A stretch of DNA of 64,000 bases from Candidatus Omnitrophota bacterium (lineage in GTDB: Bacteria > Omnitrophota > Gorgyraeia > VGKH01), in assembly GCA_016867135.1 (NCBI GenBank), contig VGKH01000002.1, forward strand, positions 6,312 through 70,311, written 5' to 3'. This document shows, one piece after another, positions 1 to 62,721 of the stretch. The notes under the pieces are model-generated. The model saw nothing but the letters and a program-made list of their open reading frames with translations. It ran no database searches and was not told where the DNA came from. How positions within the stretch are numbered: the stretch's first letter is position 1; each line of letters begins with the position of its first letter. A program made the translations under genes and the position numbers.

Positions 1-485
1 TCTTAAGTGCGTCTAAACATGTCTCTGAAGCCATAATTTCCGTGGCTAGCCAGCACCACGAATGCGTCAACGGCAAGGGGTATCCTAAAAGATTAAAGGG
101 GCAAGAGATTAATGAGTGCGCAAAGATAGTGGCTGCAGCGGACTATTACGAGGCGCTTATGCATCCTCGCTCGCATAGGGAAAGGCTAAATCCCTATGAA
201 GCATTAAGGGTGTTAATAGAGAATAAAGAACGCTTTGATTACCGTGTTTTGAAGGTTTTAATCAAACAGATGGGCGTATATCCTATCGGAAGCCTGGTCC
301 AACTTAGTTCAGGGGAAATTGGTATCGTGGTAAAAACTAATAGCCAGTCCGCTTTAAGGCCCATAGTGAAGATTTTCTTTGATGCCCAAGGTAAAAGAGT
401 CGAGCAAGAAAAGAATATCGATTTAATAAAGTCTCCCACCATAGTTATTAAAAAACCAATCCAAGAAAAAGACCTAAATTTGTAA
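1..485 (+). CDS. HD-GYP domain protein, C-terminal part (5' end outside window; frame is open to position 3)
   Basis: HHE...GKGYP motif (HD-GYP signature) near start; ORF continues upstream without a stop. Confidence 0.7.
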   Translation, partial: LSASKHVSEAIISVASQHHECVNGKGYPKRLKGQEINECAKIVAAADYYEALMHPRSHRERLNPYEALRVLIENKERFDYRVLKVLIKQMGVYPIGSLVQLSSGEIGIVVKTNSQSALRPIVKIFFDAQGKRVEQEKNIDLIKSPTIVIKKPIQEKDLNL

Positions 486-503: not shown

Positions 504-532
504 TTGACAGTCAGAATAAAATAACTTATTAT
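504..532 (+). promoter_or_regulatory. sigma70-like promoter TTGACA-N17-TATTAT upstream of peptidase/rSAM operon
   Basis: TTGACA 504-509, 17-nt spacer, TATTAT 527-532, 37 nt before the 569 start. Confidence 0.4.
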
Positions 533-568
533 AAGAAAAGAAGATAGGATATTTTAGTAATTTATCCG

Positions 569-1072
569 ATGGATAGCGTTGAGTTGATAAAACAGGCCGT
601 AGCTACTAAAGGCAAGGCCAATCTCTCCTTTAGCGGAAAAAGCATGCACCCAACCTTAAAAGATGCGATGGTCGTTACAATATCCCGCTTTTTGCCGGAA
701 TCCATAAGAGTTTCTGATATCATAGCCTACCAACAAAATAACCAGATAGTTGCCCACAGAGTCATAAAAATAATCAAAAATAATGGAGAAATTTCATTTA
801 TAACCAAGGGTGACAACCAGCCTTTTGGAGGAGTTAGCTTTGTCGGGCAAAAAGACTGCCTCGGAAAGATAAAGAATGCTTTTACTTCCAGTTTTTGCGA
901 AAAGAATATTTTAAATGAAAATTTATTATACAGGATGTCATACGTTTTAATAGGCAGGTTGTATTTATTTTATAGAGGCTTTATACGGCGCTACCTTCCT
1001 GAATTTTTAAGGATTATTATTCGGGGATTTGTCGGCAATGTTTATTTTTGTCTTCAAAAGTTATCAGCTTGA
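569..1072 (+). CDS. signal-peptidase-I-like (S26/S24 superfamily) serine peptidase, no N-terminal TM segment
   Basis: SGKSMHPTL (box B, Ser nucleophile), HRVIKI (box D-like with Lys), KGDNQPFGG (box E GDN); hydrophilic N-terminus. Confidence 0.55.
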   Translation: MDSVELIKQAVATKGKANLSFSGKSMHPTLKDAMVVTISRFLPESIRVSDIIAYQQNNQIVAHRVIKIIKNNGEISFITKGDNQPFGGVSFVGQKDCLGKIKNAFTSSFCEKNILNENLLYRMSYVLIGRLYLFYRGFIRRYLPEFLRIIIRGFVGNVYFCLQKLSA

Positions 1073-1082
1073 GAGGTAATTC

Positions 1083-3608
1083 ATGGTAACCCAAGTCATG
1101 CAGGAACAAAAAACGACACACTCTACGCTTAGTACGGTATATTTATATTTTTCCCAATATTGTAATTTAAGATGCCGTCACTGCTGGATAGACCCTAAGT
1201 TTGCCAAAGATAAGGCGCCTAAAAATGATGATATAGACATAAAGTCAATTATTTCTGCTTTAGAAGAATGCCGCCAGTTAGGGATGAATGCGGTTAAAGT
1301 GACCGGCGGCGAGCCTTTTCTCAGGGAAGATGTATTTGAACTTTTAGATTATTGTAAAAGTAAGAAAATACATTTAAGTTTTGAGACCAATGGCACTTTA
1401 ATTAAAGATGCCCATGCCCGCGCCTTGAAAGATGCCCGGGTGGGCTTGGTTGCTGTTTCTCTCGACGGCCCCAACGCCAAGATACATCAATTGCTAAGGG
1501 GCGTGGAAGATTCTTTTGACCAGGCAGTAGAAGGAATAAAGTCGCTCAAAGAATATGGTATCCATGTTCAAGTAATTATTTCGCTTTGGCGAAACAACAA
1601 AGATTATATCAAAGATACCATAGACTTATCCCGTTTGTTGGGCGTTAATTCGGTAAAGATAAATATTATTAGCAGTATTGCCAGAGCAGGTAAGCTTATG
1701 CAGGATAGCGAGATCTTAAGTGTTGAAGAAGTCATTGATTTTTATCAGGCATTAACTGGTCAACTGAGTAAAGAAACGCCGTTTGATGTTATTTTTGATA
1801 TTCCTCCGGCTTTTCGCTTCAAAGAAAATATCCAACAAGTAGATTCATGTTCTTGCGGTATCCACGGCATATTGGGCATATTGGGAGATGGAAAAATTTC
1901 CATTTGTGGGATAGGAAGTAGCCTGGATGCGCTTGTTTTAGGTAAAGTCGGACAGGATAGTATAAAGGACATCTGGAACAATCATCCAATCCTGGAGGAA
2001 ATCAGAGATAAAGTTCCTTATAAGTTAGAAGGAATTTGTGGTAAATGCAGTAAAAGATACTCTTGTTTGGGAAAATGTAGGGCTGAGGCTTATTATAATA
2101 GCAAAACATTTGTCTCCCCATTTTCATTTTGCCAACAGGCATACGAGCAAGGACTGTTCCCTGATTCTGCCATCAAGGAAGATTTAAAGACTAATAGATA
2201 CATAGCAAGAAATAATTGCGTAATTTCTTACCAAGATAACGGCGTAATTACAACCTGTCTTAGAAAGGGCCAGGATTATATCAAATTAGAAGGTTTTGAT
2301 GTTTGGCTTTGGGATCGATTAGGGAAAGTTGAGAAACTTTCTATTGCAGAAGTTGAATCTGAAGCCAGAAAATCTGGGATTTCTAAAGAAGGCGATAATG
2401 TTGAAAGAAAAATCGAAGACTTAATAAGATCTAATGTTGTTTCTTGTGTAGAAGAAACTATGGTTTGCAATCAAGATTTGGCGATCGACAGCAAGAAATT
2501 AAATAAGTATATGGCTATGCGCGATGCCTTGGTCAGGGAATTAAGCAGCGCCAAGAATTTCGGCAAAAAAGAGGATTTAAGCAATTTTCATCAAAACGCA
2601 GTTGAGACTATCGACGGGCATTTTGAAACCAAAGAAGTGACAGCTTCTCATTTGTTGCGTGAAAACAATCCGGCGTTGGGCGGATTAAATTACGGAGCCA
2701 AGCTTTTTGAGAAGGTCGAAAGCCTAAAGACAATAGAGAAAAACGCCAGAATTTTAGATGTGGGTTCGGGATTAGGGTTTACTTCCCGATCATTTTTACA
2801 ATCTCTGAAAGAGAAAAATCCCGATGTAGCAGCCAGCATAAGTTATATACTTTGCGATTTAACCTTTAAATTCTTGAAAAACCAAAAGAATCTCACTTCG
2901 GGATATCCTACAAGATTTATCCAGGCAAACGCCGAAGGCCCGCCGTTTAATAACAACAGTTTCGATATAATTCTTGCCAATGAAAACATCGCCGATTTTA
3001 CTTCGGTCAAGCTCAACAAGAAAGATGTTCTGGATTTCTTAGTTGGCAAGATTAAGCAAGAACATGTAGAAGACGCTTCAACAAGAAAGGCGCTAGAGTG
3101 GATAAAATCATCCTCAATTGACGTAAGCGACGCCCTTCCAGAATTCATATTTAATTTAGGGGCATTCGAGTTTATGAAGCAGATTAATCGGCTGCTAAAG
3201 GCTGGCGGCTTGGCTTTTGTTTGCGAATACGGAATCTTGCGGGGTTATCCCACCGCAGTGTATCTGCCGAATCACACCGAATATACCATACAATTTTCCC
3301 AGCTTATAAAATGCATAAAATCTTTAGGTATGGAGGTTGAGGTTCGTTCTCTTTTGGATTTTTTTGATTTTAATAAAGAAGAAGAGGTTGTCGACGAATG
3401 TTCCCTGAATTTTGTCTACGGAATTATGAAAAAAAACAATATCAATTTGCCGTATTTAGCCTATACTAAAGAAATGCTGGAAGAAAAAATAAACGGGAAT
3501 TTATTGTCTAATTTCAAGAATCTGAAATTTCTGAAGATCAGAGAAAAAATGGCTTGCATGAATATGGATACATTTTATGTTTTGTTAATTAGAAAAAAAG
3601 GAGGTTGA
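1083..3608 (+). CDS. radical SAM/SPASM-domain enzyme fused to a C-terminal class I SAM-dependent methyltransferase domain (841 aa)
   Basis: CNLRCRHC (CxxxCxxC) near N-terminus; Cys-rich SPASM-like region CSCG...CGKCSKRYSCLGKCRAEAY around aa 250-330; ILDVGSGLGFTS methyltransferase motif I around aa 560. Confidence 0.8.
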   Translation: MVTQVMQEQKTTHSTLSTVYLYFSQYCNLRCRHCWIDPKFAKDKAPKNDDIDIKSIISALEECRQLGMNAVKVTGGEPFLREDVFELLDYCKSKKIHLSFETNGTLIKDAHARALKDARVGLVAVSLDGPNAKIHQLLRGVEDSFDQAVEGIKSLKEYGIHVQVIISLWRNNKDYIKDTIDLSRLLGVNSVKINIISSIARAGKLMQDSEILSVEEVIDFYQALTGQLSKETPFDVIFDIPPAFRFKENIQQVDSCSCGIHGILGILGDGKISICGIGSSLDALVLGKVGQDSIKDIWNNHPILEEIRDKVPYKLEGICGKCSKRYSCLGKCRAEAYYNSKTFVSPFSFCQQAYEQGLFPDSAIKEDLKTNRYIARNNCVISYQDNGVITTCLRKGQDYIKLEGFDVWLWDRLGKVEKLSIAEVESEARKSGISKEGDNVERKIEDLIRSNVVSCVEETMVCNQDLAIDSKKLNKYMAMRDALVRELSSAKNFGKKEDLSNFHQNAVETIDGHFETKEVTASHLLRENNPALGGLNYGAKLFEKVESLKTIEKNARILDVGSGLGFTSRSFLQSLKEKNPDVAASISYILCDLTFKFLKNQKNLTSGYPTRFIQANAEGPPFNNNSFDIILANENIADFTSVKLNKKDVLDFLVGKIKQEHVEDASTRKALEWIKSSSIDVSDALPEFIFNLGAFEFMKQINRLLKAGGLAFVCEYGILRGYPTAVYLPNHTEYTIQFSQLIKCIKSLGMEVEVRSLLDFFDFNKEEEVVDECSLNFVYGIMKKNNINLPYLAYTKEMLEEKINGNLLSNFKNLKFLKIREKMACMNMDTFYVLLIRKKGG

Positions 3609-3609
3609 G

Positions 3610-3948
3610 TTGGGCAAAATAGGATCAGAAGGAAAGATTAAAAGAAAATATACCGAACCCTTGATTTTTGATATCGGCGGTCCTAGTTTGAACGTAGTGG
3701 GAGCTAGCGCTGTGTTATGTGCAGCTGGCTCTGGAGGTACCGCAAGATGTGGTTGCGGCGCAAGCGGTACTTATTCTCTATGCGGAACCGGGAGTAAAGT
3801 TGCCACATCTTGTGCAACCGGAGGTATATTCAACTCAAATAATAACTGCGGTGCAGGCAGCTCGGCTTCAAGATGTTGTAGCACTGGCTCTAGTGCTGGT
3901 ATCACCTGTTCTATTGGCAGCGGCGTTGGGGGGGTCACAGAGGTGTAA
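3610..3948 (+). CDS. candidate RiPP precursor peptide; TTG start 5 nt after AAAGGAGG; leader with ...LIFDIGG motif; 9-Cys Gly/Ser/Thr/Ala-rich core
   Basis: Strong SD 3598-3604; low-complexity core CAAGSGGTARCGCGASGTYSLCGTGSKVATSCATGG...CGAGSSASRCCSTGSSAGITCSIGSGVGG; sits between two rSAM/SPASM genes; codon-repetitive GC-rich DNA unlike surroundings. Confidence 0.65.
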   Translation: MGKIGSEGKIKRKYTEPLIFDIGGPSLNVVGASAVLCAAGSGGTARCGCGASGTYSLCGTGSKVATSCATGGIFNSNNNCGAGSSASRCCSTGSSAGITCSIGSGVGGVTEV

Positions 3949-4029: not shown

Positions 4030-5100
4030 ATGTATTCTGCCCCGCTTAATGTTTGTTTGCATATAACCAGTCGATGTAATTTGAGCTGTAAACACTGCCT
4101 TAACCGGGACCAGCCAGATTCCGAGCCTGATTTAACTACCGAAGAACTTATCAGCGTTATCGACCAGCTGGGCGAAGCAAGAGTTTTTCAGATAAGCATA
4201 TTCGGAGGCGAACCTTTAACCCATCCTGATTTTACTGTCGTGGTTGAACATCTCAATAAATATCCCTTTACACTTTCTTTAAATACCAATGCCACTTTAA
4301 TCGACCGCTCTATGGCTAAATGGCTAAAAAAACATAAAATAAGAGATGCTGTAGTTAGCTTTGATGGCTCTTGTCCTGAGATAATGGATAAAACCAGGGG
4401 CGAGGGTGTTTTTGCTAAAAATATCAAAGGCATAGAGGCGCTTTTGTCCGAAGGTATTTATGTTTTGCTTTCTGCCACTTTAACTAAAATAAATTATAAA
4501 GATGCAAGAGAAATGGTTTTGTTGGGCAAGAGATTAAAAGCCAATAAAATTCGTTTTAATCATGTATTTTTTGGTGGCAACGCCGCGTGTTTTATCAAAG
4601 AGGTTTATCTTTCCCCTGAACAGGAAAGAGAAGCTATAGAAGCGGTAGTCTCGGCAAATAAAGAATTTCCTGGCTTTATCGTTCAGGATAGCACCTATCT
4701 CAACCAGAAGGATAAATTAGAAGAAATGAAAGATTTCGAACCCGCTACAGATAAAATCACTGTTGCACCTTGCGGCGCCGCTTACCTTAAATGCGCCATA
4801 AGAGCAGATGGTTGGGTTATTCCTTGCGAGTTACTATGGGATGCTAAATGCGGCAATCTAAAGAATCAGAGTTTGACCGATATTTGGCAGAATTCCGAGA
4901 CTATGAATGAATTCAGAAGGCCGCTGGAATTAGATTTAAATGAAATACCTGAGTGCAAAGGCTGTAAATACCAATATATATGTTTTATCGGACACCGTTG
5001 TAACCCTTACTATTTTCCCGGCGGGGTTAAGGACCGTTCGGTTTATTGTTTGCTAGAGGGTAAAAAAGAGATGAGGAAGGTGGCTGATGTCGTTAAATAA
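4030..5100 (+). CDS. radical SAM/SPASM-domain peptide-modifying enzyme
   Basis: CNLSCKHC motif at N-terminus; C-terminal Cys cluster APCGAAYLKC...PCELLWDAKCGNL...CKGCKYQYICFIGHRCNPY typical of SPASM twitch/auxiliary clusters. Confidence 0.85.
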   Translation: MYSAPLNVCLHITSRCNLSCKHCLNRDQPDSEPDLTTEELISVIDQLGEARVFQISIFGGEPLTHPDFTVVVEHLNKYPFTLSLNTNATLIDRSMAKWLKKHKIRDAVVSFDGSCPEIMDKTRGEGVFAKNIKGIEALLSEGIYVLLSATLTKINYKDAREMVLLGKRLKANKIRFNHVFFGGNAACFIKEVYLSPEQEREAIEAVVSANKEFPGFIVQDSTYLNQKDKLEEMKDFEPATDKITVAPCGAAYLKCAIRADGWVIPCELLWDAKCGNLKNQSLTDIWQNSETMNEFRRPLELDLNEIPECKGCKYQYICFIGHRCNPYYFPGGVKDRSVYCLLEGKKEMRKVADVVK

Positions 5101-5356
5101 GAATCTTAAGGCGAACTCAAAGATAGTATTCCGAGAAGAAACAGATGATGCGCTTTTATTCGATCCTGATAGCGGAAATATAAAAGTTATCAATGAGACC
5201 GGAAAATTCATTTGGGCCAATTTAGACGGCAAAAACGATGAAGATTCCCTGGTAAAAAAGATTATGGATAAATTCGATATTTCCGACGAGCAAAAAGCCA
5301 GGGAAGATTTAGGTAAGTTCTTGGAAGATTTAAAAATACAGAAATTCTTGGAGTAA
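5087..5356 (+). CDS. PqqD-family protein (RiPP recognition element-like)
   Basis: 89 aa; DALLFDPDSGNIKVINETGKFIWANLDG pattern matches PqqD fold consensus (x-L-L-x-x-x-sG-x-x-x-LN-x-t-a-x-x-iW). Confidence 0.7.
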   Translation: MSLNKNLKANSKIVFREETDDALLFDPDSGNIKVINETGKFIWANLDGKNDEDSLVKKIMDKFDISDEQKAREDLGKFLEDLKIQKFLE

Positions 5357-5357
5357 G

Positions 5358-5621
5358 ATGAAGATAAAACAAGTAGAAGGCCTCCTTGTGGCTTCTTTTC
5401 CGAATAGTTCGGTAATATTTAATTGCAATAATCGCCGTTCTTATATATTGAACTATACAGCGTCTTTAATTTGGGATTTCTGTAAAAAGCCAAGAGATAT
5501 AGCTGAAATCGCCTGCTTCATTCATCGAAAATATGATTTAGTTTTATCAAAAGCACTCAGAGATGCCAGAAGTTTTGTTGCGCGACTTAAGAAAAGACAG
5601 CTTCTGTCTGTTGTCAGGTAG
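5358..5621 (+). CDS. second PqqD-like small protein
   Basis: 87 aa; SYILNYTASLIWDFCKKPRDIAEI resembles PqqD helix region; tandem with previous. Confidence 0.5.
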   Translation: MKIKQVEGLLVASFPNSSVIFNCNNRRSYILNYTASLIWDFCKKPRDIAEIACFIHRKYDLVLSKALRDARSFVARLKKRQLLSVVR

Positions 5622-5638
5622 CATAGAGAGAGACAACG

Positions 5639-6583
5639 GTGGGTTTATGTGCTTTTTTCATGAAGACCATAACTTTCAATATAGCCAATATTCCGTTATC
5701 GGTAAAATGTAGAGACGACGAAGCTCTACCGTCTTTATTCCAGCAATTCACAAGCACTGCCAAGAGACCAACTGATCGAACATGGCATTTAGAATCAGTA
5801 GGTATTAAGAAAAACAGATCCAATAAATTCCCTTCCTGTATTGCAAAGAAAATAAGCCCAATAGCAGAAAGATTTGGTTCCATCCGTAACTTTAGAGTTG
5901 ATTTAGAGAAGAAACAAAAGATTTTGTCTAGTGTTTATTCACAATTTCCGGAAGCGCTATCCGATATTTCCTTTTATTTTGACGAGCCAGTTGGAATAAA
6001 TACTAAAAAAAGAAAGATTAGGCATTTTTATACGAGCTCAACAGGATTTGATGAGATAAGGAAATTTGATTCCCGGCTGACTATTTTTGCCTATTCCCAA
6101 ATTTTAGCATCTTTAGAGGGGTTTCTTTTGCATTGCGCTTGCGTAGTAAAGAATAAAGACGCCTTTTTATTCTTTGCTAAATCAGGAGGAGGAAAATCCA
6201 CGGTTGCTAAGTTATCACGGCAATATACTGTTTTAGGAGACGATATAATTGCAGTTAGGAAAATAAACCATGATTTCGTAGCTTTTTCAACACCGTGGAA
6301 ACAAAAAAAGACTGCGAATAGACGAACCTTGTTTTCTGCTAGGATCAAAGCCGTTTTTTTCTTAAGAAAATCAAATAGAGTTTTATTTAAACCGTTAAAA
6401 TCGGATAAGGCATTAGTTAGATTTCTATCGCGATACATCCATTTCTTTTTGTATACTGAAAGGCCATTGGCAGATAAAATCTTTTTTACTGCAGCTGATT
6501 TCTTTAAGACAATCCCGGCTTACGAGATGCATTTTAGAAAATATGCAGATTTTTGGCCAAAGTTGGAGAAAATAATAAAATGA
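5639..6583 (+). CDS. HPr kinase-related P-loop protein (HprK C-terminal-domain-like)
   Basis: LLHCACVVKNKDAFLFFAKSGGGKSTVAKL...VLGDDIIAV resembles HprK C-domain Walker A and downstream Asp. Confidence 0.5.
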   Translation: MGLCAFFMKTITFNIANIPLSVKCRDDEALPSLFQQFTSTAKRPTDRTWHLESVGIKKNRSNKFPSCIAKKISPIAERFGSIRNFRVDLEKKQKILSSVYSQFPEALSDISFYFDEPVGINTKKRKIRHFYTSSTGFDEIRKFDSRLTIFAYSQILASLEGFLLHCACVVKNKDAFLFFAKSGGGKSTVAKLSRQYTVLGDDIIAVRKINHDFVAFSTPWKQKKTANRRTLFSARIKAVFFLRKSNRVLFKPLKSDKALVRFLSRYIHFFLYTERPLADKIFFTAADFFKTIPAYEMHFRKYADFWPKLEKIIK

Positions 6584-8340
6584 ACAAGCTTAACTTTAAG
6601 ATTATTTTGTCTTTTCTTAAATACTTAAAGCCATATTGGAAAAAAGAAGCTGTGGTTTGGCTTTTGAGTTTTGGAATAGCCGGGCTGTCTTTAGCTTATC
6701 CTTACATTGCCAAATTAGTTGTGGACAAGGCGTATCAGGAGAGAAACTGGACTTTATTTATTGAACTTTTGGTTACGGGAGGACTTGTATTTATAATTTC
6801 AAGTTTATTCCAGGTCGTGTCAAATTTCTTAAGAGAATACATAGATTTAAAGGTCCGCTTCGACCTGCAAAAAATTATATTCCAAAAAATAGAAAATTTG
6901 CCCTATAGCTTCTTCCAATTAAGGCCCACGGGAGAGTATATATATAAATCGCTTATTGAGAGCTCTCAGGTCTCCGACTTTATTACTTCTGTCGCCCCGG
7001 AGTTGTTTTATATTATCCCCAAATTCTTGTTGATATTCACCATTCTTTTCTTCATAAACTGGAAAATGGCTGTTTTTATTTTTGTTGTGGCGCCTGTTTT
7101 AAATATCCCGACATTTTTTATTGCGCGCAAGGTTAGAAAACAATCAGAGAAGTCGCTTAATAGTTCCCAGGACATATTGGAGACAGCCCGAGAATCATTT
7201 TCTAATATGCAATTGGTCAAGGTCTTTGGAAAAGAAAAGAAAGAAAACAGGCGTTTTGTGAAACAAATGATAAAAAATATTCGCTTAAGCATAATCAGCT
7301 TCAGATTGAACGCCTTCAGTTCTTTTCTAGAAAGCTGGGCTAATAAGTTGTTGCTTGGCCTGATAACTCTTTACGGCGGATACAACATTATCAAAGGCCA
7401 GATAAGTCTGGGCAGCTTTACCGCAATAATGCTTTATATAAATCAGCTGCTTGATTTGGAGAATTTGTTCGTTGGTTTTTTTGTGCACCGTCTTAATACG
7501 GGGCTTGTTTCCGTCCGGAGGCTTTCAGAGATTATGAATTCTTGGCCGCAAGAACTTGAAGATAAAAACACAAGGGCTATTTTACTGTCATCAGGAGAAA
7601 TAGAGTTTAGAGATGTCTCTTTCGGATATTATCCCAAGACGCCTATTTTAGAGCATATAAGTTTACATATAAAATCTGGTTCGTCAATTGGCCTGGTAGG
7701 AAACTCCGGCCGCGGCAAGACGACGCTCGTTAGTCTTATTGTAAAACTTTATCAAATTTCTGAAGGTGAAATCCTTGTCGATGGGCAGGATATTAACTTG
7801 ATAAAGAATAGCTCGCTTCGCCAGCAAATAGGAGTGGCATTGCAAAAGCCAATCTTGTGGAATGATACCATTCGAAACAATATAACATATAGTATTTTAA
7901 GCGCAACTGATGAGGAAGTTCTGCAGGCAGCAATGATTTCCTGCGCTTACGATTTTATCAAAGAGCTACCGCGAGGCTATAACACTATTATGGGAGAAGG
8001 GGCGGTGCGCCTTTCCGAAGGGCAGAAACAGAGGATTTCTTTAGCAAGGGCAATCATAAAAAAGCCAAAGATTTTAATTATAGATGAAGGCATGTCTTCG
8101 CTTGATTCTCAGACCGAGGACAGTATCATTGATAACATAAAAAAGGAGCTGAAAAACACAACCATGATTGTTATTTCCCACCGTTTATCCACAATAAAGA
8201 AGGTGGATAGGGTTTACTTTTTAGAAAAGAAAGATAAAATGAGTTTTGGCCATCACGAAGAGTTGCTACATCAAAATCCTCAATACAAAGAACTATTCGC
8301 TAGTCAGATAGAAGAAGAGCATATCAAAATAAAATCATAA
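6553..8340 (+). CDS. ABC transporter, fused permease/ATPase (type I exporter, peptide-export-like); no N-terminal C39 peptidase domain
   Basis: 6 predicted TM helices then Walker A GNSGRGKTT, signature LSEGQKQRISLARAI, Walker B ILIIDEGMSSLD, H-loop ISHRL. Confidence 0.85.
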   Translation: MAKVGENNKMNKLNFKIILSFLKYLKPYWKKEAVVWLLSFGIAGLSLAYPYIAKLVVDKAYQERNWTLFIELLVTGGLVFIISSLFQVVSNFLREYIDLKVRFDLQKIIFQKIENLPYSFFQLRPTGEYIYKSLIESSQVSDFITSVAPELFYIIPKFLLIFTILFFINWKMAVFIFVVAPVLNIPTFFIARKVRKQSEKSLNSSQDILETARESFSNMQLVKVFGKEKKENRRFVKQMIKNIRLSIISFRLNAFSSFLESWANKLLLGLITLYGGYNIIKGQISLGSFTAIMLYINQLLDLENLFVGFFVHRLNTGLVSVRRLSEIMNSWPQELEDKNTRAILLSSGEIEFRDVSFGYYPKTPILEHISLHIKSGSSIGLVGNSGRGKTTLVSLIVKLYQISEGEILVDGQDINLIKNSSLRQQIGVALQKPILWNDTIRNNITYSILSATDEEVLQAAMISCAYDFIKELPRGYNTIMGEGAVRLSEGQKQRISLARAIIKKPKILIIDEGMSSLDSQTEDSIIDNIKKELKNTTMIVISHRLSTIKKVDRVYFLEKKDKMSFGHHEELLHQNPQYKELFASQIEEEHIKIKS

Positions 8341-9545
8341 TGGTCAAGATATCTCAGTCAAAAGAGAATAAAGCTTGGTTTAGCTCCCAAACGATTAATT
8401 TTTTAACCTGTTGTAGCCGCACAATTATAGACGAAGAAGTTACAGGGAAAATAAAATCTTTAATAGCGCCTGATTTAGATTGGCCAGCCATAATTATAAA
8501 AGCCAAAAATCAAGGGGTGGCACAATTTTTATATTTCCACCTGGCAAAATTAGAAGAAGTTTGGTCGATTGTGCCCGATGAATTAAAAAAAGAACTAAGA
8601 GAATTTTATCATAGAATTTTAGCTAATAATTGGTTGATTCAAAACGAGCTTAAGAAAATAATCCCGTTATTAGATCGTGTTTGCATCGAAGTTATTGTTT
8701 TAAAAGGAGCAAGCCTTCTTGGGTCGGTATATAAAAATATAGCCTTTCGTCCGATGATCGATGTGGATTTATTGGTTAGAAAACAAGATCTGCCCAGGGC
8801 AAAAACTATTCTACATGATATAGGATATCGAAAGCCAGATTTTCTAGATCAACAGAGTTTGGAGAAATTCGGAGGAGAAATTCATCTTTATAAAAATGGA
8901 GGAGTTTTTCTAGATATTCATACGACTTTATCCCAGTATGAGCGTTTTGAGGATATTCTAAAAATCGATTCCGACGAAGAACTTTGGAATAAAACAAGAA
9001 GATTTAATAATGGTGAGGGCGAAATTAGGATGCTTGGGCCCGACCATCTGCTTATGCATTTATGTATGCATCAGGCATTGGCTCATTGGTTTGCTGGATT
9101 ATTTCGTTTCTGCGATCTTCGTGAAACCATTTTGGCTTATAAAGAAGAATTGGATTTTGAATATATAATAAAAAAAGCAAGAATATACAAGATAAATAAA
9201 ATTCTTTATTTTGCCCTTTCTTCTGTGCAGGAACTTTTTGGTCCGATATTGCCTCAAGATTTCTTAGCTAATCTGCAGTATAAACATAGGCTAACTATTA
9301 GTATAGGCTGTTTTCTTTTTAGAAAAAAGATCTTATCTTTACCTGACAAAGAAGTAGCATTTCGGAAATCTATAAATCAGTTGTTTTTGATGGATAATTT
9401 TTCAGACTTGCCTCAAATTATATTTAAAGGGTTTTTTCCTTCCGATGATTGGCTCAGGTATAGATATGGAGTCAGAAGTAGGATAAAATTATTTTTTTAC
9501 CGTTTAATCCACCCCTTCATTACAGCATTTAATATTCTTTCCTAA
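8340..9545 (+). CDS. uncharacterised nucleotidyltransferase-family protein (PF14907-like)
   Basis: FRPMIDVDLLVRKQD motif typical of this nucleotidyltransferase family; size ~400 aa. Confidence 0.5.
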   Translation: MVKISQSKENKAWFSSQTINFLTCCSRTIIDEEVTGKIKSLIAPDLDWPAIIIKAKNQGVAQFLYFHLAKLEEVWSIVPDELKKELREFYHRILANNWLIQNELKKIIPLLDRVCIEVIVLKGASLLGSVYKNIAFRPMIDVDLLVRKQDLPRAKTILHDIGYRKPDFLDQQSLEKFGGEIHLYKNGGVFLDIHTTLSQYERFEDILKIDSDEELWNKTRRFNNGEGEIRMLGPDHLLMHLCMHQALAHWFAGLFRFCDLRETILAYKEELDFEYIIKKARIYKINKILYFALSSVQELFGPILPQDFLANLQYKHRLTISIGCFLFRKKILSLPDKEVAFRKSINQLFLMDNFSDLPQIIFKGFFPSDDWLRYRYGVRSRIKLFFYRLIHPFITAFNILS

Positions 9546-9634: not shown

Positions 9635-10699
9635 ATGCATAAATTTATTAAGATTTATAGTAGAAGGTTTTTTCTGGTCATTTTTATTTCCATTTTTATT
9701 AGTTCTTGTTCAGCCGCAAAAAGACAACAGCAATTCTCCGCGGATTTAAGAAAAGCCGCATTAAAACTCGCCCAACAGGATAGTTTTCCCAAGAATGATT
9801 ATTATACAATCGACCAGGACGATATACTTGATATAACAGTATGGAAGTCTTTAGGCTCAAAAGAAGGAGAGGCGGAAAAGGAGTATTTTATTAACGATGG
9901 CGATCAATTGGAAATTTCTGTATGGCAATGGCCAGACCTTTTAAGAAACGTTGTCGTTCGTCCCGACGGGAAAATTTCTTTTCCTTTAGTAGGAGATATC
10001 CAGGCAAAGGGGAAAACTTTAACCGCATTGGATGATGAAATTACCGAGAAACTTTCTTCTTTTATTAAATCTCCCGAGGTTTCAGTAATGATAACAGCAT
10101 TTGGGGCAGAGCAAGAAGGTTTCTTAAAGCCGGAGATATCTTTTGTTAAAGTTAATGAGTTGAGCGCAGAGCAGGCAGTGGCTCCCGACGGTAATATTTA
10201 TTTGCCTTTAATCGGAGCGGTTCAGGCTTCCGGCTTAACGTTAAATCAATTAGGTTTGAAGATAAAGGATAGCGTCGCTCAATTTGTCCAGAATCCGGAA
10301 GTCTCGGTTACTATCAAACAATTCGGTGGTAGAAAACTTATTGTCTTGGGGGAAGTTACCGATCCGGGAGTATATCTTTTTACCGGGAAAGCGACTGTTT
10401 TGGAAGCCATCGGTTGGGCAGGGGGCTACACCAGAAACGCCGTTTTAAAAAACGTGCTTGTTATAAGGGGGAATTTATCTAAACCGGAAGTTTTTAATCT
10501 GAATTTGCGCAGTGTGCTGGATAAAAAAGATATGAGCCAGAACCTAGCAATTCAGGCAAGAGATGTAATATATGTTCCCAGGACTGTTGTTGCTGAAGTA
10601 AGCCATATTTTATCACAATTGCTTGGCCCTTTGACAAGTTCATCGAGCGCAGTTACTGCTATAAAGACTATCAGGACTGGGCCTAGCCCCAAGAAATAA
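9635..10699 (+). CDS. polysaccharide export outer-membrane lipoprotein (Wza/EpsA family; Poly_export + SLBB)
   Basis: Lipobox ISSC after signal peptide; repeated PDG..ISFPLVGDIQAKG / PDGNIYLPLIGAVQASG SLBB motifs. Confidence 0.8.
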   Translation: MHKFIKIYSRRFFLVIFISIFISSCSAAKRQQQFSADLRKAALKLAQQDSFPKNDYYTIDQDDILDITVWKSLGSKEGEAEKEYFINDGDQLEISVWQWPDLLRNVVVRPDGKISFPLVGDIQAKGKTLTALDDEITEKLSSFIKSPEVSVMITAFGAEQEGFLKPEISFVKVNELSAEQAVAPDGNIYLPLIGAVQASGLTLNQLGLKIKDSVAQFVQNPEVSVTIKQFGGRKLIVLGEVTDPGVYLFTGKATVLEAIGWAGGYTRNAVLKNVLVIRGNLSKPEVFNLNLRSVLDKKDMSQNLAIQARDVIYVPRTVVAEVSHILSQLLGPLTSSSSAVTAIKTIRTGPSPKK

Positions 10700-10700
10700 A

Positions 10701-12620
10701 ATGCCACAATACGAATTAAATATTCAAGATTATTTAAGAATCCTCCGGAAGAGAAAATGGATAATTTTTCTTACCATAATTTCTACTTTCGTTGGAACCA
10801 TAACTTACAACAATCTTCAAACTCCTGTCTATAGCGCTAGCGTCTCAATCAAGATAGAAGTGCGTCAAACCGCGATAGCCGCGCTTACTGAGACTATTTT
10901 AGGATACGGCTATGATGTATTGGCCACCGAGCAGAAAGTTATAACCGGCCGTCCCGTCGTGGAAGAGGCGGCAAGGCGCCTGGAGCTATTCTCCAAAAAT
11001 GCCTCGCAGGACGAAATTGATTTTATAGTAAGCGATATACAGGCCGGTTTGAATTCAATCACCGACCAGATTTCTTCAATTATTTTGCTAACTGTGGAAT
11101 CCGACCAGCCGAAAAAAGCCCGGGATATCGCCAATAAAATAGCAGAAGTTTACATCGAAGAGAACCTAAAACAGAGAAGCAAAGAGGCAACCCAGGTTAG
11201 AGATTTTATTGAGAAACAACTATCTGATGTGGAGACAAGACTACACGCTTCGGAAGATGCGTTGGCAAAATTCAGGGAGCAAGAAGCGGTTACCGGAGTG
11301 GCGGTGGGTCTGGAAAACCGCCTTGGAACATTAAAGGCGCAATTATCTGATTTATTAACTAAGGCAACCGAAAAACATCCCGACGTCCAGCGCTTGGAGG
11401 AACAAATCAAAGAAGCGGAGGACGAGCTAAAGAAACTTCCTCAGGCCGAACTGGAATTCGCCAGGCTTGAGCGCGACGTCAACGTCAATGAAAAGCTTTA
11501 TACAATGTTAAGGGAGAAATTTGAGGAGGCAAGGATTTCTGAGAAAGGAATGGTTTCTCAGGCAACGGTAGTCAATCCCGCGGTAGAGCCAAGAGTCCCT
11601 ATAAAACCAAACAAAAGATTCGCCGCGGTTGTGGGAGTAGTGGTGGGAATGATGCTAGGTTTGATTCTGGCATTTGTTACTGAGAGCTTGGACACATCTA
11701 TCGGAACAATAGAAGACGTTGAGAACTTGTTAAAAGTTCCAGTGTTGGCGATAATTCCTTCCATAAAGACGGAGGTCGCCGAAGAAAAACCTTGGTGGAA
11801 GCGGGGAATTTTTCCGCAAATGCAACAGACTAAAGAGGAGGAAAGAGAGGCGGCGCTCTCTGTGCTTTTTAAACCGCTATCTCAGATTGCCGAATCATAT
11901 AGGATATTAAGGACCAATCTTAAAATATCCGATACGAAAAAAGCTTTTCTTGTAACAAGCTGTGGGCCTCAAGAGGGAAAGACAACTGTTTTAGTGGGCC
12001 TAGGCATTACCTTGGCGCAGATGGGGATAAAGACGCTTCTAATCGATTCAGACCTCAGGCGTCCGTCGGTACATAAAAAACTCGGTATCACTAAAGAATC
12101 TGGAGTAAACGAGATCGTTAATAAGTCAATAACCTGGCAAGATGCGGTTAAAGGACTGCCGGATATTTTGATGGGAGAATTAGGCTTTGACGATGCGCTT
12201 AAGAATCCCGGATTAGACAATTTGAGCATAATTACTGCCGGTGCATCTTCTAACAATCCTTCAGAGTTATTGGGTTCAAAGACTATGGAGTCATTGCTAG
12301 CTGAATTCAGAGACAATTTTGACGTAATCTTGTTTGATTCTCCTCCCAGCTTGGCAATAACCGATGCCTCTGTGCTTGCGCCTTTGCTTGATGGGGTAGT
12401 AATTGTTTATGAGATGGGCAGGACCGCAAGGGCCGCGCTGTTAAGAGCAAAGGTTCAGTTAGAATCTGTCGGCGCAAATGTCCTAGGAGTGGCGCTTAAT
12501 CATATCAAGCCAGAAAGCGAAGTAGCAACTGGTTATTATCCATATTATTATCATTATAAATACAAATATGCCGAGAAGCAAAAGGAAGAAAAAGAATCTC
12601 ACCATCAGGAGTCTACATAA
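10701..12620 (+). CDS. polysaccharide co-polymerase/BY-tyrosine autokinase (Wzc-like: chain-length determinant + P-loop kinase + C-terminal Tyr cluster)
   Basis: N-terminal TM + Wzz-like coiled region; Walker A SCGPQEGKTT; Walker B VILFDSPP; C-terminal YYPYYYHYKYKY. Confidence 0.85.
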   Translation: MPQYELNIQDYLRILRKRKWIIFLTIISTFVGTITYNNLQTPVYSASVSIKIEVRQTAIAALTETILGYGYDVLATEQKVITGRPVVEEAARRLELFSKNASQDEIDFIVSDIQAGLNSITDQISSIILLTVESDQPKKARDIANKIAEVYIEENLKQRSKEATQVRDFIEKQLSDVETRLHASEDALAKFREQEAVTGVAVGLENRLGTLKAQLSDLLTKATEKHPDVQRLEEQIKEAEDELKKLPQAELEFARLERDVNVNEKLYTMLREKFEEARISEKGMVSQATVVNPAVEPRVPIKPNKRFAAVVGVVVGMMLGLILAFVTESLDTSIGTIEDVENLLKVPVLAIIPSIKTEVAEEKPWWKRGIFPQMQQTKEEEREAALSVLFKPLSQIAESYRILRTNLKISDTKKAFLVTSCGPQEGKTTVLVGLGITLAQMGIKTLLIDSDLRRPSVHKKLGITKESGVNEIVNKSITWQDAVKGLPDILMGELGFDDALKNPGLDNLSIITAGASSNNPSELLGSKTMESLLAEFRDNFDVILFDSPPSLAITDASVLAPLLDGVVIVYEMGRTARAALLRAKVQLESVGANVLGVALNHIKPESEVATGYYPYYYHYKYKYAEKQKEEKESHHQEST

Positions 12621-25590: not shown

Positions 25591-27447
25591 ATGTGTGGAA
25601 TCTGCGGGATAGTTGGTAAATACGATAAGCAACTTCTGGAGAAGATGTGCGATGCGATGGTGCATCGCGGTCCGGATTCCGACGGTATCTTCTCGGGAAC
25701 AGACATGGGTTTAGGCATAAGACGGTTAAGGATCATAGATTTAGAAACCGGCGACCAGCCAATCCATAACGAGAATAAGAACCTTTGGATTGTGCTAAAC
25801 GGCGAGATTTATAATTACAAAGAATTAAAGGAAGGGCTCATAAAAAAAGGCCATAGATTTTATACCAAAACCGATACGGAAGTTATTTTACATCTTTATG
25901 AAGAATATAAAGATGATTGCGTAGATTTTTTACGCGGCATGTTTTCTTTTGCGATATGGGATTCTGATAAAAAGAGGTTATTTTTGGCCCGCGACAGAGT
26001 TGGGATAAAACCTTTGTATTACAGTTTTAATAATGGAAGATTTATTTTTGCATCTGAACTGAAAGCTATCTTAAAAGACGAATCAGCCGTAAAATCAATT
26101 GATTCAGAGTCGTTGGAATATTATCTGACATTCCTTTACATCCCCGCTCCGTTTACGATTTTTAAGTCAGTAAGAAAACTTCCTCCCGCCCATATCTTAA
26201 CCATGCAGGATGGCATTATAAAAATCCGTCGCTACTGGAAATTAGATTTTTACCATGACAAAATCGAGGCGGAAGACGATTACGTTGAAAAAATTAAGTC
26301 AATGCTTGAAGAAGTTACTAAGCTTCATATGGTTAGCGACGTACCGATAGGCGCTTTATTAAGCGGCGGACTTGATTCAAGCGCCGTTGTCGCTCTTATG
26401 AGTGAGTTTACACAGCATCCGATAAAGACTTTTTCAATTGGTTTTGAAGAAAAATTTTCATCTTATAATGAGCTGGAATTCTCGCGATTGGTCGCCAAAC
26501 AATTCGGCACAGAACATCACGAATTCATAATCAAGCCCAACATAATTGAGACGTTGCCTAAAATAATCCAATATTTAGAAGAACCATTCGCCGATTCTTC
26601 GGCTATTTTAAATTATTTGATTTGTAAGGAGGCAAAGAAATTTGTTACCGTAGGATTAACCGGCATAGGAGGCGACGAGATTTTCGGCGGTTACCCGCGC
26701 TATTTAGGGCTTATGGTTGATGAACATTATCAAAGGTTCCCCAGGTTTTTGCGGGCGGCCCTAAGCGGGTTCTCGGGGTTTATTCCCCAGACTACGGATA
26801 GCCAGAATATCGGAGGCAGGCTTTCTCGGTTTTTCAAGGGATCTTGCGCAAATACAAATCAAAGATACTTAAGTTGGTTGACGTATTTTGATGCAGTTAT
26901 GAAATCGGAACTTCTAAATCAAGAAGTAACAGTCAGGAATTACATCCATAATGATTATCTTAATGAATTAGAAACTAGCGATTTTATTGATAAAGCAAGC
27001 TACATGGATATAAACACTTACCTTCCCGACGATCTTTTGATTATGGCCGATAGAATGTCTATGGCGAATTCTTTTGAATTAAGGGTGCCATTATGCGACC
27101 ACAAGTTAATGGAGCTTTGCGCGGGCATTCCTTTTTCGGTAAAGTTAAAGGGTTTAAAATTAAAAAGCCTTTTTAAGAAGACGCTGAATAATGTTTTGCC
27201 TCAAGAGGTAATTAATAAAAGAAAGCAGGGCTTTATGGTTCCTCTGGCTGATTGGTTAAAAGAAGACCTGAGGGATTTTGTCAAAGATTCCCTCAGCAAC
27301 GAAGCGATAAAAAAGAGAGGATATTTTAATCCGGAATATGTTTCCGAAGTCCTGGATCTGCATTTTAAAGGCAAAAAGGTGCTAACCCACCAAATCTGGG
27401 CTTTGTTAGTTTTTGAATTGTGGGCGCAAAAATATTTAGATAGCTAA
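25591..27447 (+). CDS. asnB: asparagine synthetase (glutamine-hydrolysing) family amidotransferase
   Basis: MCGICGIVG N-terminal Cys nucleophile; SGGLDSS PP-loop. Confidence 0.85.
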   Translation: MCGICGIVGKYDKQLLEKMCDAMVHRGPDSDGIFSGTDMGLGIRRLRIIDLETGDQPIHNENKNLWIVLNGEIYNYKELKEGLIKKGHRFYTKTDTEVILHLYEEYKDDCVDFLRGMFSFAIWDSDKKRLFLARDRVGIKPLYYSFNNGRFIFASELKAILKDESAVKSIDSESLEYYLTFLYIPAPFTIFKSVRKLPPAHILTMQDGIIKIRRYWKLDFYHDKIEAEDDYVEKIKSMLEEVTKLHMVSDVPIGALLSGGLDSSAVVALMSEFTQHPIKTFSIGFEEKFSSYNELEFSRLVAKQFGTEHHEFIIKPNIIETLPKIIQYLEEPFADSSAILNYLICKEAKKFVTVGLTGIGGDEIFGGYPRYLGLMVDEHYQRFPRFLRAALSGFSGFIPQTTDSQNIGGRLSRFFKGSCANTNQRYLSWLTYFDAVMKSELLNQEVTVRNYIHNDYLNELETSDFIDKASYMDINTYLPDDLLIMADRMSMANSFELRVPLCDHKLMELCAGIPFSVKLKGLKLKSLFKKTLNNVLPQEVINKRKQGFMVPLADWLKEDLRDFVKDSLSNEAIKKRGYFNPEYVSEVLDLHFKGKKVLTHQIWALLVFELWAQKYLDS

Positions 27448-62346: not shown

Positions 62347-62422
62347 TGCCCCTGTAGCTCAGTCGGCAGAGCACGTCCTTGGTAAGGACGGGGTCATCGG
62401 TTCAATTCCGATCGGGGGCTCC
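62347..62422 (+). tRNA. tRNA-Thr (anticodon GGT)
   Basis: 76-nt cloverleaf, 7-bp acceptor stem, anticodon loop TTGGTAA, TPsiC arm GGTTCAATTCC, encoded CCA. Confidence 0.9.
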
Positions 62423-62648: not shown

Positions 62649-62721
62649 AGGAGCGTCGGTTAACGGTAAACCACCGGTCTCCAAAACCGGGACTGCGGGT
62701 TCAATTCCTGCCGCTCCTGCC
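62649..62721 (+). tRNA. tRNA-Trp (anticodon CCA)
   Basis: 73-nt cloverleaf, anticodon loop CTCCAAA, conserved position upstream of secE. Confidence 0.9.

Follow-up and report, generated by a model that had tools for sequence, protein, structure and literature searches.

The window analysed here is a 64,000-nucleotide stretch of contig VGKH01000002.1 (positions 6,312 to 70,311 of the forward strand; assembly GCA_016867135.1) from a Candidatus Omnitrophota bacterium. Close to its start lies a compact cassette predicted to make a peptide that is synthesized ribosomally and modified post-translationally (RiPP), with genes in the order peptidase, ScmF-like radical S-adenosylmethionine (rSAM) enzyme with a SPASM domain, precursor peptide, ScmE-like rSAM/SPASM enzyme, two PqqD-family proteins of the RiPP recognition element (RRE) type, ScmC-like P-loop protein, ATP-binding cassette (ABC) exporter and NTP_transf_5 nucleotidyltransferase (Table 1). 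Our subject is the first of these genes, which encodes a homologue of signal peptidase I (SPase I; MEROPS family S26) and for which the initial annotation had proposed the role of a RiPP leader peptidase. Domain assignments with the Pfam and NCBIfam models identify its product as the sole protease of the cassette. As the next gene begins 10 nucleotides after its stop codon, the gene heads its transcription unit. The upstream sigma-70-like promoter agrees with this placement, which had been proposed earlier; it matches 11 of the 12 consensus positions, as a consensus match alone, two such sites being found where 2.4 are expected in shuffled sequences.

Table 1. Features of the cassette in the window, and gene arrangements at distantly related loci (positions of the latter are those of the respective locus)
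Feature	Position	Strand	Basis or remarks
Sigma-70-like promoter	504..532	+	TTGACA, 17-nucleotide spacer, TATTAT; ~37 nucleotides upstream of the peptidase start codon
Anchorless S26B (SipW/Sec11/LppS-like) serine peptidase, 167 residues	569..1072	+	Family model, fold, alignments
C-terminal tail of the peptidase, residues 119-166, Arg/aromatic-rich	923..1066	+	AlphaFold2-predicted helices 119-142 and 145-166
ScmF-like rSAM/SPASM maturase with class I S-adenosylmethionine methyltransferase domain, 841 residues	1083..3608	+	Radical_SAM, SPASM, Methyltransf_11
Precursor peptide, 112 residues, TTG start	3610..3948	+	GGAGG Shine-Dalgarno 5 nucleotides upstream (region 3596-3612)
ScmE-like rSAM/SPASM maturase, 356 residues	4030..5100	+	TIGR04250, 167.3 bits (cut-off 400)
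PqqD-family RRE 1 (PqqD1, ScmD-like)	5087..5356	+	PqqD, 53.2 bits; TIGR04248, 58.4 bits (cut-off 100)
PqqD-family RRE 2 (PqqD2, lasso-B1-like), LppB equivalent	5358..5621	+	Best NCBIfam match lasso_PqqD_Bac, 35.8 bits
ScmC-like P-loop protein (SGGGKST), divergent HprK-like kinase candidate, LppK equivalent	5639..6583	+	TIGR04249, 45.4 bits (cut-off 125)
MsbA-like ABC exporter, LppD equivalent	6553..8340	+	ABC_membrane and ABC_tran; best NCBIfam match TIGR02203 MsbA
NTP_transf_5 (PF14907) nucleotidyltransferase, LppN equivalent	8340..9545	+	162.3 bits
Start of polysaccharide export/biosynthesis locus: Wza-like, then Wzz/tyrosine-kinase-like	9635..12620	+	Headed by the cassette
L005			PqqD - ScmC/HprK-like - S26 - nine tandem small open reading frames - ABC - NTP_transf_5
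L006 and L016	L006 8822-11832; L016 6786-9869		Small open reading frame - S26 - ScmC - PqqD - rSAM/SPASM
L007			PqqD - S26, with DUF455 and Asn synthase genes nearby
L008			NTP_transf_5 - S26 - ScmF-like rSAM - PqqD - PqqD::ScmE-like fusion
L009			Two S26 copies with small open reading frames, PqqD, ScmC, ABC, NTP_transf_5
L010			PqqD - S26
L014			NTP_transf_5, small open reading frame, PqqD, ScmC, S26, ABC
L015			S26, with DUF455 and Asn synthase genes nearby; no PqqD match on record

The peptidase is a homologue of the archaeal/endoplasmic reticulum (ER)-type signal peptidases (S26B, SipW/Sec11-like). It matches the NCBIfam model for archaeal-type signal peptidase I (TIGR02228) with 63.8 bits, above the curated cut-off of 51.85 (E 1.6e-17); its nearest solved proteins by sequence are human SEC11C and SEC11A (E 2.7e-7), and SEC11A (7p2p) is also the nearest fold to its AlphaFold2 model (Foldseek E 6.6e-5). 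The SPase I boxes reported initially are present as S25-M-H-P-T-L, H63-R-V-I-K-I and G81-D82-N83 and mark a genuine S26 homologue, but the base of box D is not the lysine of RVIKI. Across 22 family members sharing 28-63% identity (mean column identity 34%) only M1, S25, M26, P28, H63, R64 and D82 are invariant, and the six from S25 to D82 remain so in a 17-sequence alignment that includes an anchored SipW-type control and LppS, a characterized homologue discussed below. K67, the lysine of RVIKI, varies freely in both alignments, and the conjunction of an invariant H63/R64 with a variable K67 indicates a Ser-His enzyme of the ER/archaeal type (S26B) rather than one of the bacterial Ser-Lys type. 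Furthermore, S25 and H63 align with the Ser and His of SEC11, and the Asp of the GDN motif is likewise aligned. The codons of these residues occupy nucleotides 641-643 (Ser25), 755-757 (His63) and 812-814 (Asp82), followed at 830-832 by that of Gly88, which occupies the place of Asp93 in LppS.

The sole Pfam match of the protein is to Peptidase_S24, at 18 bits and thus under the cut-off of 23.3, and the C-terminal domains of LexA occur among its fold matches, both of which would be expected if it were a self-cleaving S24 regulator of the operon, of the LexA/UmuD type. This alternative, named in the initial annotation, is extremely improbable, as the protein has no DNA-binding domain and its N-terminus is a single 12-residue helix (residues 3-14, nucleotides 575-610, as predicted by AlphaFold2), the general base is His and not Lys, and the best sequence and fold matches are with Sec11 and LppS rather than with LexA.

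The peptidase also lacks an N-terminal membrane anchor, as had been noted initially. Its Kyte-Doolittle hydropathy in a 19-residue window peaks at 1.11 for the whole protein and at 0.40 for its N-terminal part, the usual threshold being 1.6, and the catalytic Ser is encountered already at residue 25. A longer N-terminus is impossible, since an in-frame TAG lies at 545-547, 24 nucleotides before the start, and the beginning of the protein (M-x-S-x-E-L) is common to nine orthologues. In the TIGR02228 alignment residues 16-133 are paired with profile positions 31-151 of 158, and as the match starts at position 31 the N-terminal anchor region of the profile is without a counterpart. With no hydrophobic N-terminal segment, the protein is not the canonical anchored LepB or SipW enzyme that the initial annotation had named as the contrary outcome. 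A profile search of 1.84 billion representative sequences recovered 5560 matches at E<=1e-3 and 132 clusters at E<=1e-10. Of the top representatives, 134 were amenable to analysis; 123 of them have no N-terminal hydrophobic segment, and the median position of the catalytic Ser in the set is 31.

Several relatives show fusions of the anchorless S26-like domain to other domains, namely Radical_SAM (P0042), NTP_transf_5 (P0130, P0149), GNAT acetyltransferases (P0043, P0100, P0123, P0155) and HprK-like P-loop domains with weak scores on the kinase side (P0098, P0131). As these partners need cytoplasmic cofactors (S-adenosylmethionine and Fe-S clusters, nucleoside triphosphates, or acetyl-CoA), the S26-like domain is likely to reside in the cytoplasm. 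The C-terminal tail carries 8 Lys/Arg against 2 Asp/Glu, which suggests amphipathic rather than membrane-spanning helices, and in this clade its hydropathy, with a peak of 1.11, does not reach the transmembrane threshold. Among the more distant relatives, between a third and a half have values above 1.6 for the corresponding helix. The cytoplasmic location given by the initial annotation is well supported by inference from these fusions and from the activity of LppS in a membrane-free system, with the reservation that the tail may bind the membrane. These features also bear on the proposal that the protein is an extracytoplasmic, C-terminally tethered SipW-like signal peptidase for proteins of the polysaccharide/biofilm locus or for the exported peptide, in the manner in which SipW serves TasA. 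For such a role one may cite the passing of the TIGR02228 cut-off, the alignment of the C-terminal helix with the C-terminal region of that profile, the crossing of the transmembrane threshold by this helix in some relatives and the position of the cassette at the head of a polysaccharide locus. However, the protein has neither an N-terminal signal anchor nor room for one, its C-terminal helices are basic and weakly hydrophobic, relatives are fused to domains with the above cofactor requirements, the orthologous precursors contain no conserved Sec-type hydrophobic region, and the anchored control scores far lower than the peptidase with a profile of the LppS family (see below); we consider this role very unlikely.

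The closest functional precedent comes from the clusters for linear polyphosphorylated peptides (LPPs) of Paenibacillus alginolyticus and other Bacillota, described in May 2026 (Popov et al., Nat Commun; PMC13381572) and often embedded in capsule loci. In these clusters LppS is an anchorless SipW homologue whose deletion abolishes leader removal; in cell-free assays it cuts only in the presence of LppB, a discrete RRE, and it is active in a membrane-free translation system, where the phosphorylated substrate is preferred (PMC13381572). The S29A, H68A and D93A variants of LppS are all inactive; its N-terminal helix touches the sheet formed by RRE and leader, and the RRE places the end of the leader in the active site, cleavage occurring after T-1 of the motif YxxPxVLxHQxIxFETxxS (PMC13381572). 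Its authors regarded SPase I-like peptidases as previously undescribed in RiPP pathways, and LPPs as restricted to Bacillota (PMC13381572). The initial annotation had called an S26-type leader peptidase atypical; with LppS, shown in this one 2026 paper, the role is no longer unprecedented.

Comparison with the LppS-family sequences in Supplementary Data 1 of that paper (PMC13381572) establishes a relationship that extends into the N-terminal helix. The peptidase retrieves LppS in a BLASTP comparison with an E-value of 2e-10 (22% identity over 99 residues), and a hidden Markov model (HMM) of 12 LppS-family sequences gives it 53.7 bits, with the alignment starting at residue 3 and including the N-terminal helix; the anchored SipW-type control (P0233) obtains 24.6 bits with the same model. 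Profile-profile comparison of the two families with hhalign gave a probability of 99.1% and an E-value of 1.2e-18 over 100 columns (columns 3-103). F42 of the hydrophobic cleft of LppS is aligned with the nearly invariant I38 of the peptidase.

The putative substrate likewise has a recognizable leader. The precursor contains the motif Y14-T-E-P17-L18-I19 (nucleotides 3649-3666), of which Y14, P17 and L18 are invariant in the orthologues, and which fits the RRE-binding consensus [Y/W]xxPx[L/V/I/F/A]. Its core comprises 76 residues, about 75% of them Gly, Ser, Ala, Thr or Cys, with 9 Cys at a spacing of about 10 residues, and this regularity suggests a ladder of repeated cross-links installed by the rSAM enzymes. 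The distance from Tyr14 to the first Cys (position 37) is 23 residues in 4/4 orthologues, and the most strongly conserved part of the precursor is the Y14-G31 block of the leader, which takes in N28, V29 and G31. S/T33 is also conserved, near the +3/+4 position expected from the LPP motif. The orthologous precursors of L001 (11706-12032), L004 (6804-7157) and L012 (11571-11948) show the same Cys spacing, with 7-9 Cys when the window copy is included. Two other candidate signals were rejected: an AXA site, A32-S33-A34, is found in the window copy only (the orthologues have VTG, TSV and ATT), and the N-terminal stretch that might be taken for a Sec signal peptide is not conserved in hydrophobicity (12-residue hydropathy of 2.04 here, 0.91-1.41 in the orthologues).

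The initial annotation had argued from a leader ending in GG combined with an exporter devoid of a C39 peptidase domain. The exporter does consist of ABC_membrane and ABC_tran alone, beginning at residue 37; the GG at residues 23-24 of the precursor, however, is replaced by GS in one orthologue and sits within a conserved stretch reaching on to N28, V29 and G31, so that a leader end at this point is unsupported. With an exporter lacking C39 and a GG that is not conserved, the locus does not fall among the double-glycine/C39 systems, and this argument is not what sustains the leader-peptidase proposal; its support comes instead from homology, from the gene set and from the YxxP motif.

The presence of two PqqD-family genes raises the matter of their respective partners. 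At L008 the PqqD1 homologue is fused to the ScmE-like rSAM enzyme and a separate PqqD2-type gene is also present, and at L005 and L007 the PqqD adjacent to the S26 gene matches PqqD2 and not PqqD1; a division of labour is therefore probable, in which PqqD1 serves the rSAM enzymes and PqqD2 the peptidase and the kinase. L010 is a counterexample, its S26-adjacent PqqD matching PqqD1. The candidate for this kinase, the ScmC-like protein, has a weak 14.7-bit match to HprK_rel_A at the P-loop, and its homologues in L005, L006 and L009 match both the ScmC and the HprK-related models; a phmmer search of this protein against the PDB gave no match to a kinase, solved HPr kinases included.

Similar associations are seen around distant relatives of the peptidase. 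A pattern scan with a narrow alignment recovered related loci in two Omnitrophota genomes and one Dehalococcoidia locus (L013) only. The 159-residue protein of the latter (9911-10390) is of the bacterial Ser-Lys SPase I-like type and has no RiPP context, for which reasons it was discarded; it too apparently lacks a strong N-terminal anchor, in its unrelated context. We further examined nine distant loci with an S26-like protein at 17-36% identity (L005-L010 and L014-L016). In 8/9 of them the S26-like gene has a PqqD gene no more than two genes away; an ScmC/HprK-like gene is found in 7/9, NTP_transf_5 in 4/9 and rSAM/SPASM genes in 3/9, and the motif YxxPx[VIL] occurs in candidate precursor open reading frames of seven (L005, L006, L007, L009, L014, L015 and L016). 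The peptides of L006 and L016 read PYKKPEVRHERIFET/MALACGK and are near the LPP motif, yet they stand in an rSAM/SPASM context; the leader PYKKPEVRHERIFET comes close to repeating the 'FET' cleavage motif of the LPPs and is followed by a two-Cys core. In high-GC metagenomic loci up to nine tandem peptides of 32-40 residues (e.g. MTYERPAVLATYKVEELMKDAAVCTVYC...) were observed (L005 9582-11272; L009 9580-9855 and 11870-11989; L014 5591-5719), placed after a PqqD - HprK-like - S26-like trio and before the ABC and NTP_transf_5 genes. They look like an uncharacterized RiPP family with neither rSAM enzymes nor a cyclase.

The homology to LppS, the presence of the LPP core gene set (with a candidate for its kinase), the YxxP leader and the similar contexts of distant relatives together support the initial proposal of a leader peptidase. 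We put at about 70% the probability that the protein is a dedicated RiPP leader peptidase derived from an archaeal/ER-type signal peptidase I, which lost its N-terminal anchor and acts on the cytoplasmic side. The pathway might then proceed as follows. The 112-residue precursor would be made and its Y14xxP17xI motif bound by a discrete PqqD-type RRE. PqqD1 would serve the two rSAM/SPASM enzymes, which would cross-link the periodic-Cys core, and one of which may methylate it. PqqD2 would present the leader-core junction to the peptidase by docking on its N-terminal helix, as LppB does on LppS, and Ser25, activated by His63, would cut somewhere in the conserved stretch that separates N28 from the first Cys (position 37). 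The ScmC-like protein, the HprK-like kinase candidate, may phosphorylate S/T33. The MsbA-like transporter would export the product, and further decoration of it may be due to the NTP_transf_5 protein and to the polysaccharide genes next to the cassette.

Several observations weigh against this reading. The peptidase and LppS share no more than about 22% identity, and their C-terminal halves do not align; neither PqqD1 nor PqqD2 shows pairwise similarity to LppB in BLASTP; the assignment of the ScmC-like protein as a kinase is weak and transitive; and the peptidase may associate with the membrane peripherally or through its C-terminal tail. In addition, the HQxIxFET part of the LPP leader motif is absent from the window leader, where the YxxPx[IV] part is invariant, and the cleavage site is a guess from spacing. 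Transferring the spacing of LppA, which is cut 16 residues from its Tyr, would put it at L27-N28-V29 / V30-G31. Around this tentative site N28, V29 and G31 do not vary, the residue at -3 is hydrophobic like that of LppA, and S/T33 is close to the place of the phosphorylated Ser+3 of LppA. A site guessed from spacing, a leader without the 'FET' site and a core made up of 7-9 units, each some 10 residues long, might instead point to a protease with another target, such as a C-terminal follower, the junctions between the Cys repeats, where cuts would set free several small peptides, or another protein of the cassette. We regard this as quite unlikely, since the conservation of the precursor peaks in the Y14-G31 leader block and not between the repeats, the characterized homologue LppS removes a leader whose end its RRE places in the active site, and the small open reading frames beside the distant relatives have the same YxxP leader in front of short, non-repetitive cores.

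A further difficulty for a leader peptidase of this kind lies in the catalytic set. Of the residues S29, H68 and D93 of LppS, the Ser and His are kept, but the position of D93, an Asp that LppS needs for activity and that does not vary in its family, is taken by Gly88, as is that of the triad Asp122 of SEC11A. Gly88 is invariant in the Omnitrophota clade within 'KGDNQPFGG', and the second acidic residue found six positions after the GDN Asp in Sec11 (D109) and SEC11A (D122), the triad Asp, is accordingly missing from the peptidase. Moreover, the AlphaFold2 model is of moderate quality, with a mean predicted local distance difference test score (pLDDT) of 72 and values below 50 in the Ser25 loop. 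A pseudo-protease or scaffold could be imagined, with an S26 fold that does not cleave and that serves as an adaptor, on which the complex of RRE and precursor is held ready for rSAM enzymes, kinase or exporter. SipA/LepA, a catalytically inactive homologue that acts in pilus assembly of Streptococcus pyogenes, offers a parallel, and SipA (4n31) is the second-best fold match of the peptidase; the replacement of an Asp whose mutation kills LppS activity and the low confidence of the predicted active-site loop point in the same direction. An acidic residue is also wanting at the Gly88-equivalent position in 50 of the 134 representative relatives, which indicates that its loss recurs. Nevertheless, the invariance of Ser25, His63, Arg64 and Asp82 at such overall divergence is hard to explain without catalysis, no other protease is available in the cassette, and dyad catalysis is common in clan SF, many of whose peptidases, such as LexA and SPase I, act as dyads; a non-catalytic scaffold, although the main rival of the leader-peptidase reading, is unlikely. 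For the mechanism, the point of interest is that this clade might do without the triad Asp.

The cassette and its surroundings are well conserved within the phylum. The same gene order, including an upstream HD_5 gene, is seen in five Candidatus Omnitrophota loci, with peptidase identities of 48-69%, and the synteny with the polysaccharide locus is kept in all the Omnitrophota loci. The HD_5 gene (HD-GYP-like, of the cyclic di-GMP phosphodiesterase type; window 42-485) lies directly upstream of the cassette and occurs at this place in all six Omnitrophota loci compared (L001-L004, L011 and L012), so that a connection in regulation may be suspected. At the normal distance from the start of the peptidase gene a Shine-Dalgarno sequence is missing, the nearest AGGA being 19 nucleotides upstream (window 540-571); set against the GGAGG of the precursor, this fits a low expression of the enzyme and a high expression of its substrate. 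The ScmF-like enzyme scores 338.8 bits with TIGR04251 (cut-off 400), and its C-terminal methyltransferase domain of about 480 residues is shared by the window and L004 copies; the ScmF-like enzymes of L001 (10514-11659) and L012 (10511-11608) are without it, and L001 has an extra rSAM gene between its two PqqD genes. Downstream, the co-directional polysaccharide locus spans 9635-33792 and encodes Wza, Wzc-like and Wzy/O-antigen ligase-like proteins, two Wzx-type flippases, glycosyltransferases, an epimerase/dehydratase and a methyltransferase. Within it, 16 kb from the cassette, lies an Asn synthase homologue (25591-27447), which may be an exopolysaccharide-type amidotransferase or a lasso-type cyclase. 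Two tRNA genes are found near the end of the window (62348-62420 and 62649-62719, + strand).

Judged from these alignments and gene neighbourhoods, the peptidase is probably an LppS-like enzyme, itself probably RRE-dependent, that was recruited outside the Bacillota to a SynChlorMet-like radical SAM cassette and has an altered catalytic set. A wider scenario can be offered only tentatively, and as a whole. It holds that the anchorless SPase I-like peptidase, the YxxP-binding RRE, the HprK-like protein, the NTP-transferase and the exporter might form an ancient module found in multiple phyla, for leader removal, tailoring and export, which was repeatedly combined with different maturases: rSAM/SPASM enzymes in the window, L006, L008 and L016, a lasso cyclase or a GNAT acetyltransferase elsewhere, and none in the LPPs. 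In the Omnitrophota, under the same tentative scenario, the product might be a ladder-like, periodically thioether-cross-linked Gly/Ser-rich peptide that is made with, and perhaps attached to, a capsule or exopolysaccharide, its leader being cut by a Ser-His dyad without the triad Asp. That such genes are found repeatedly in loci for capsule or exopolysaccharide may point to a cell-surface role. Leader peptidases of the S26 type have been known in RiPP research only since 2026 and from one Bacillota system, and the present locus and its relatives suggest a far broader class and partnership with RREs, with the peptidase coupled here to radical SAM/SPASM maturation. The locus supplies both a candidate precursor and a candidate peptidase for the uncharacterized SynChlorMet-like type of cassette, and an anchorless protein with SMxP...HR...GD beside a PqqD gene and a small YxxP open reading frame offers a handle for genome mining. 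No paper was found in a search of the literature on the SynChlorMet cassette, a search for S24/S26 peptidases with PqqD or RRE by those terms returned nothing relevant, and signal peptidases are absent from a 2023 review of the proteases that act on RiPP leaders.

Among known systems, SipW of Bacillus subtilis and the archaeal SPase I enzymes (MEROPS S26B) share with the peptidase the Ser-His chemistry, the GDN motif and a match to TIGR02228 above the cut-off. Unlike SipW, the peptidase has no N-terminal signal anchor, reaches 42 bits against a cut-off of 190 with the SipW equivalog model, and has as predicted substrate an RRE-bound cytoplasmic peptide rather than a Sec signal peptide. SEC11A and SEC11C of the human signal peptidase complex (7p2p, 7p2q) provide the best sequence and fold match, with the Ser, His and GDN Asp aligned, but they are membrane-anchored, luminal members of a four-subunit complex and possess the triad Asp. 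A cytoplasmic, anchorless enzyme of the S26 clan that removes an N-terminal propeptide inside the cell is SodX, the maturation protease of nickel superoxide dismutase. Its model (TIGR02754) is matched weakly by two anchorless relatives of the peptidase and not by the peptidase itself; unlike the latter, SodX is of the bacterial Ser-Lys type, has a folded enzyme precursor as its substrate and uses no RRE.

Closer parallels in organization are found among RiPP systems. The B1/B2 pair of lasso peptide pathways follows the same logic, a discrete PqqD-type RRE binding a YxxP leader and handing it to a separate protease, but B2 is a cysteine protease of the transglutaminase fold, unrelated to that of the peptidase, and the window cassette has no lasso cyclase. 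The SynChlorMet (SCM) cassette provides the best NCBIfam matches of four window genes, namely ScmF, ScmE, ScmD and ScmC (TIGR04248-04251). As all four fall under the curated equivalog cut-offs, the window cassette is related to SCM without being a member, and it differs in its second PqqD, S26-like peptidase, ABC exporter and NTP_transf_5 gene. Finally, the LPP clusters differ in host, the window being from Omnitrophota and LPPs having been described as Bacillota-restricted; the window cassette has in addition a pair of rSAM/SPASM maturases, of which one bears a methyltransferase domain, and the 76-residue periodic-Cys core, its leader lacks HQxIxFET, and the peptidase has Gly88 in place of the essential Asp93 and a two-helix tail that does not align with that of LppS. 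Nevertheless, both enzymes are anchorless SipW/archaeal-type S26 homologues of about 150-170 residues with an N-terminal helix followed by SMxP, HR and KGD, both precursors carry a YxxPx[VIL] leader, and both gene sets combine a PqqD-type RRE, an MsbA-like exporter and NTP_transf_5 with a polysaccharide locus, along with an HprK-like protein for which the window offers the divergent ScmC-like candidate.

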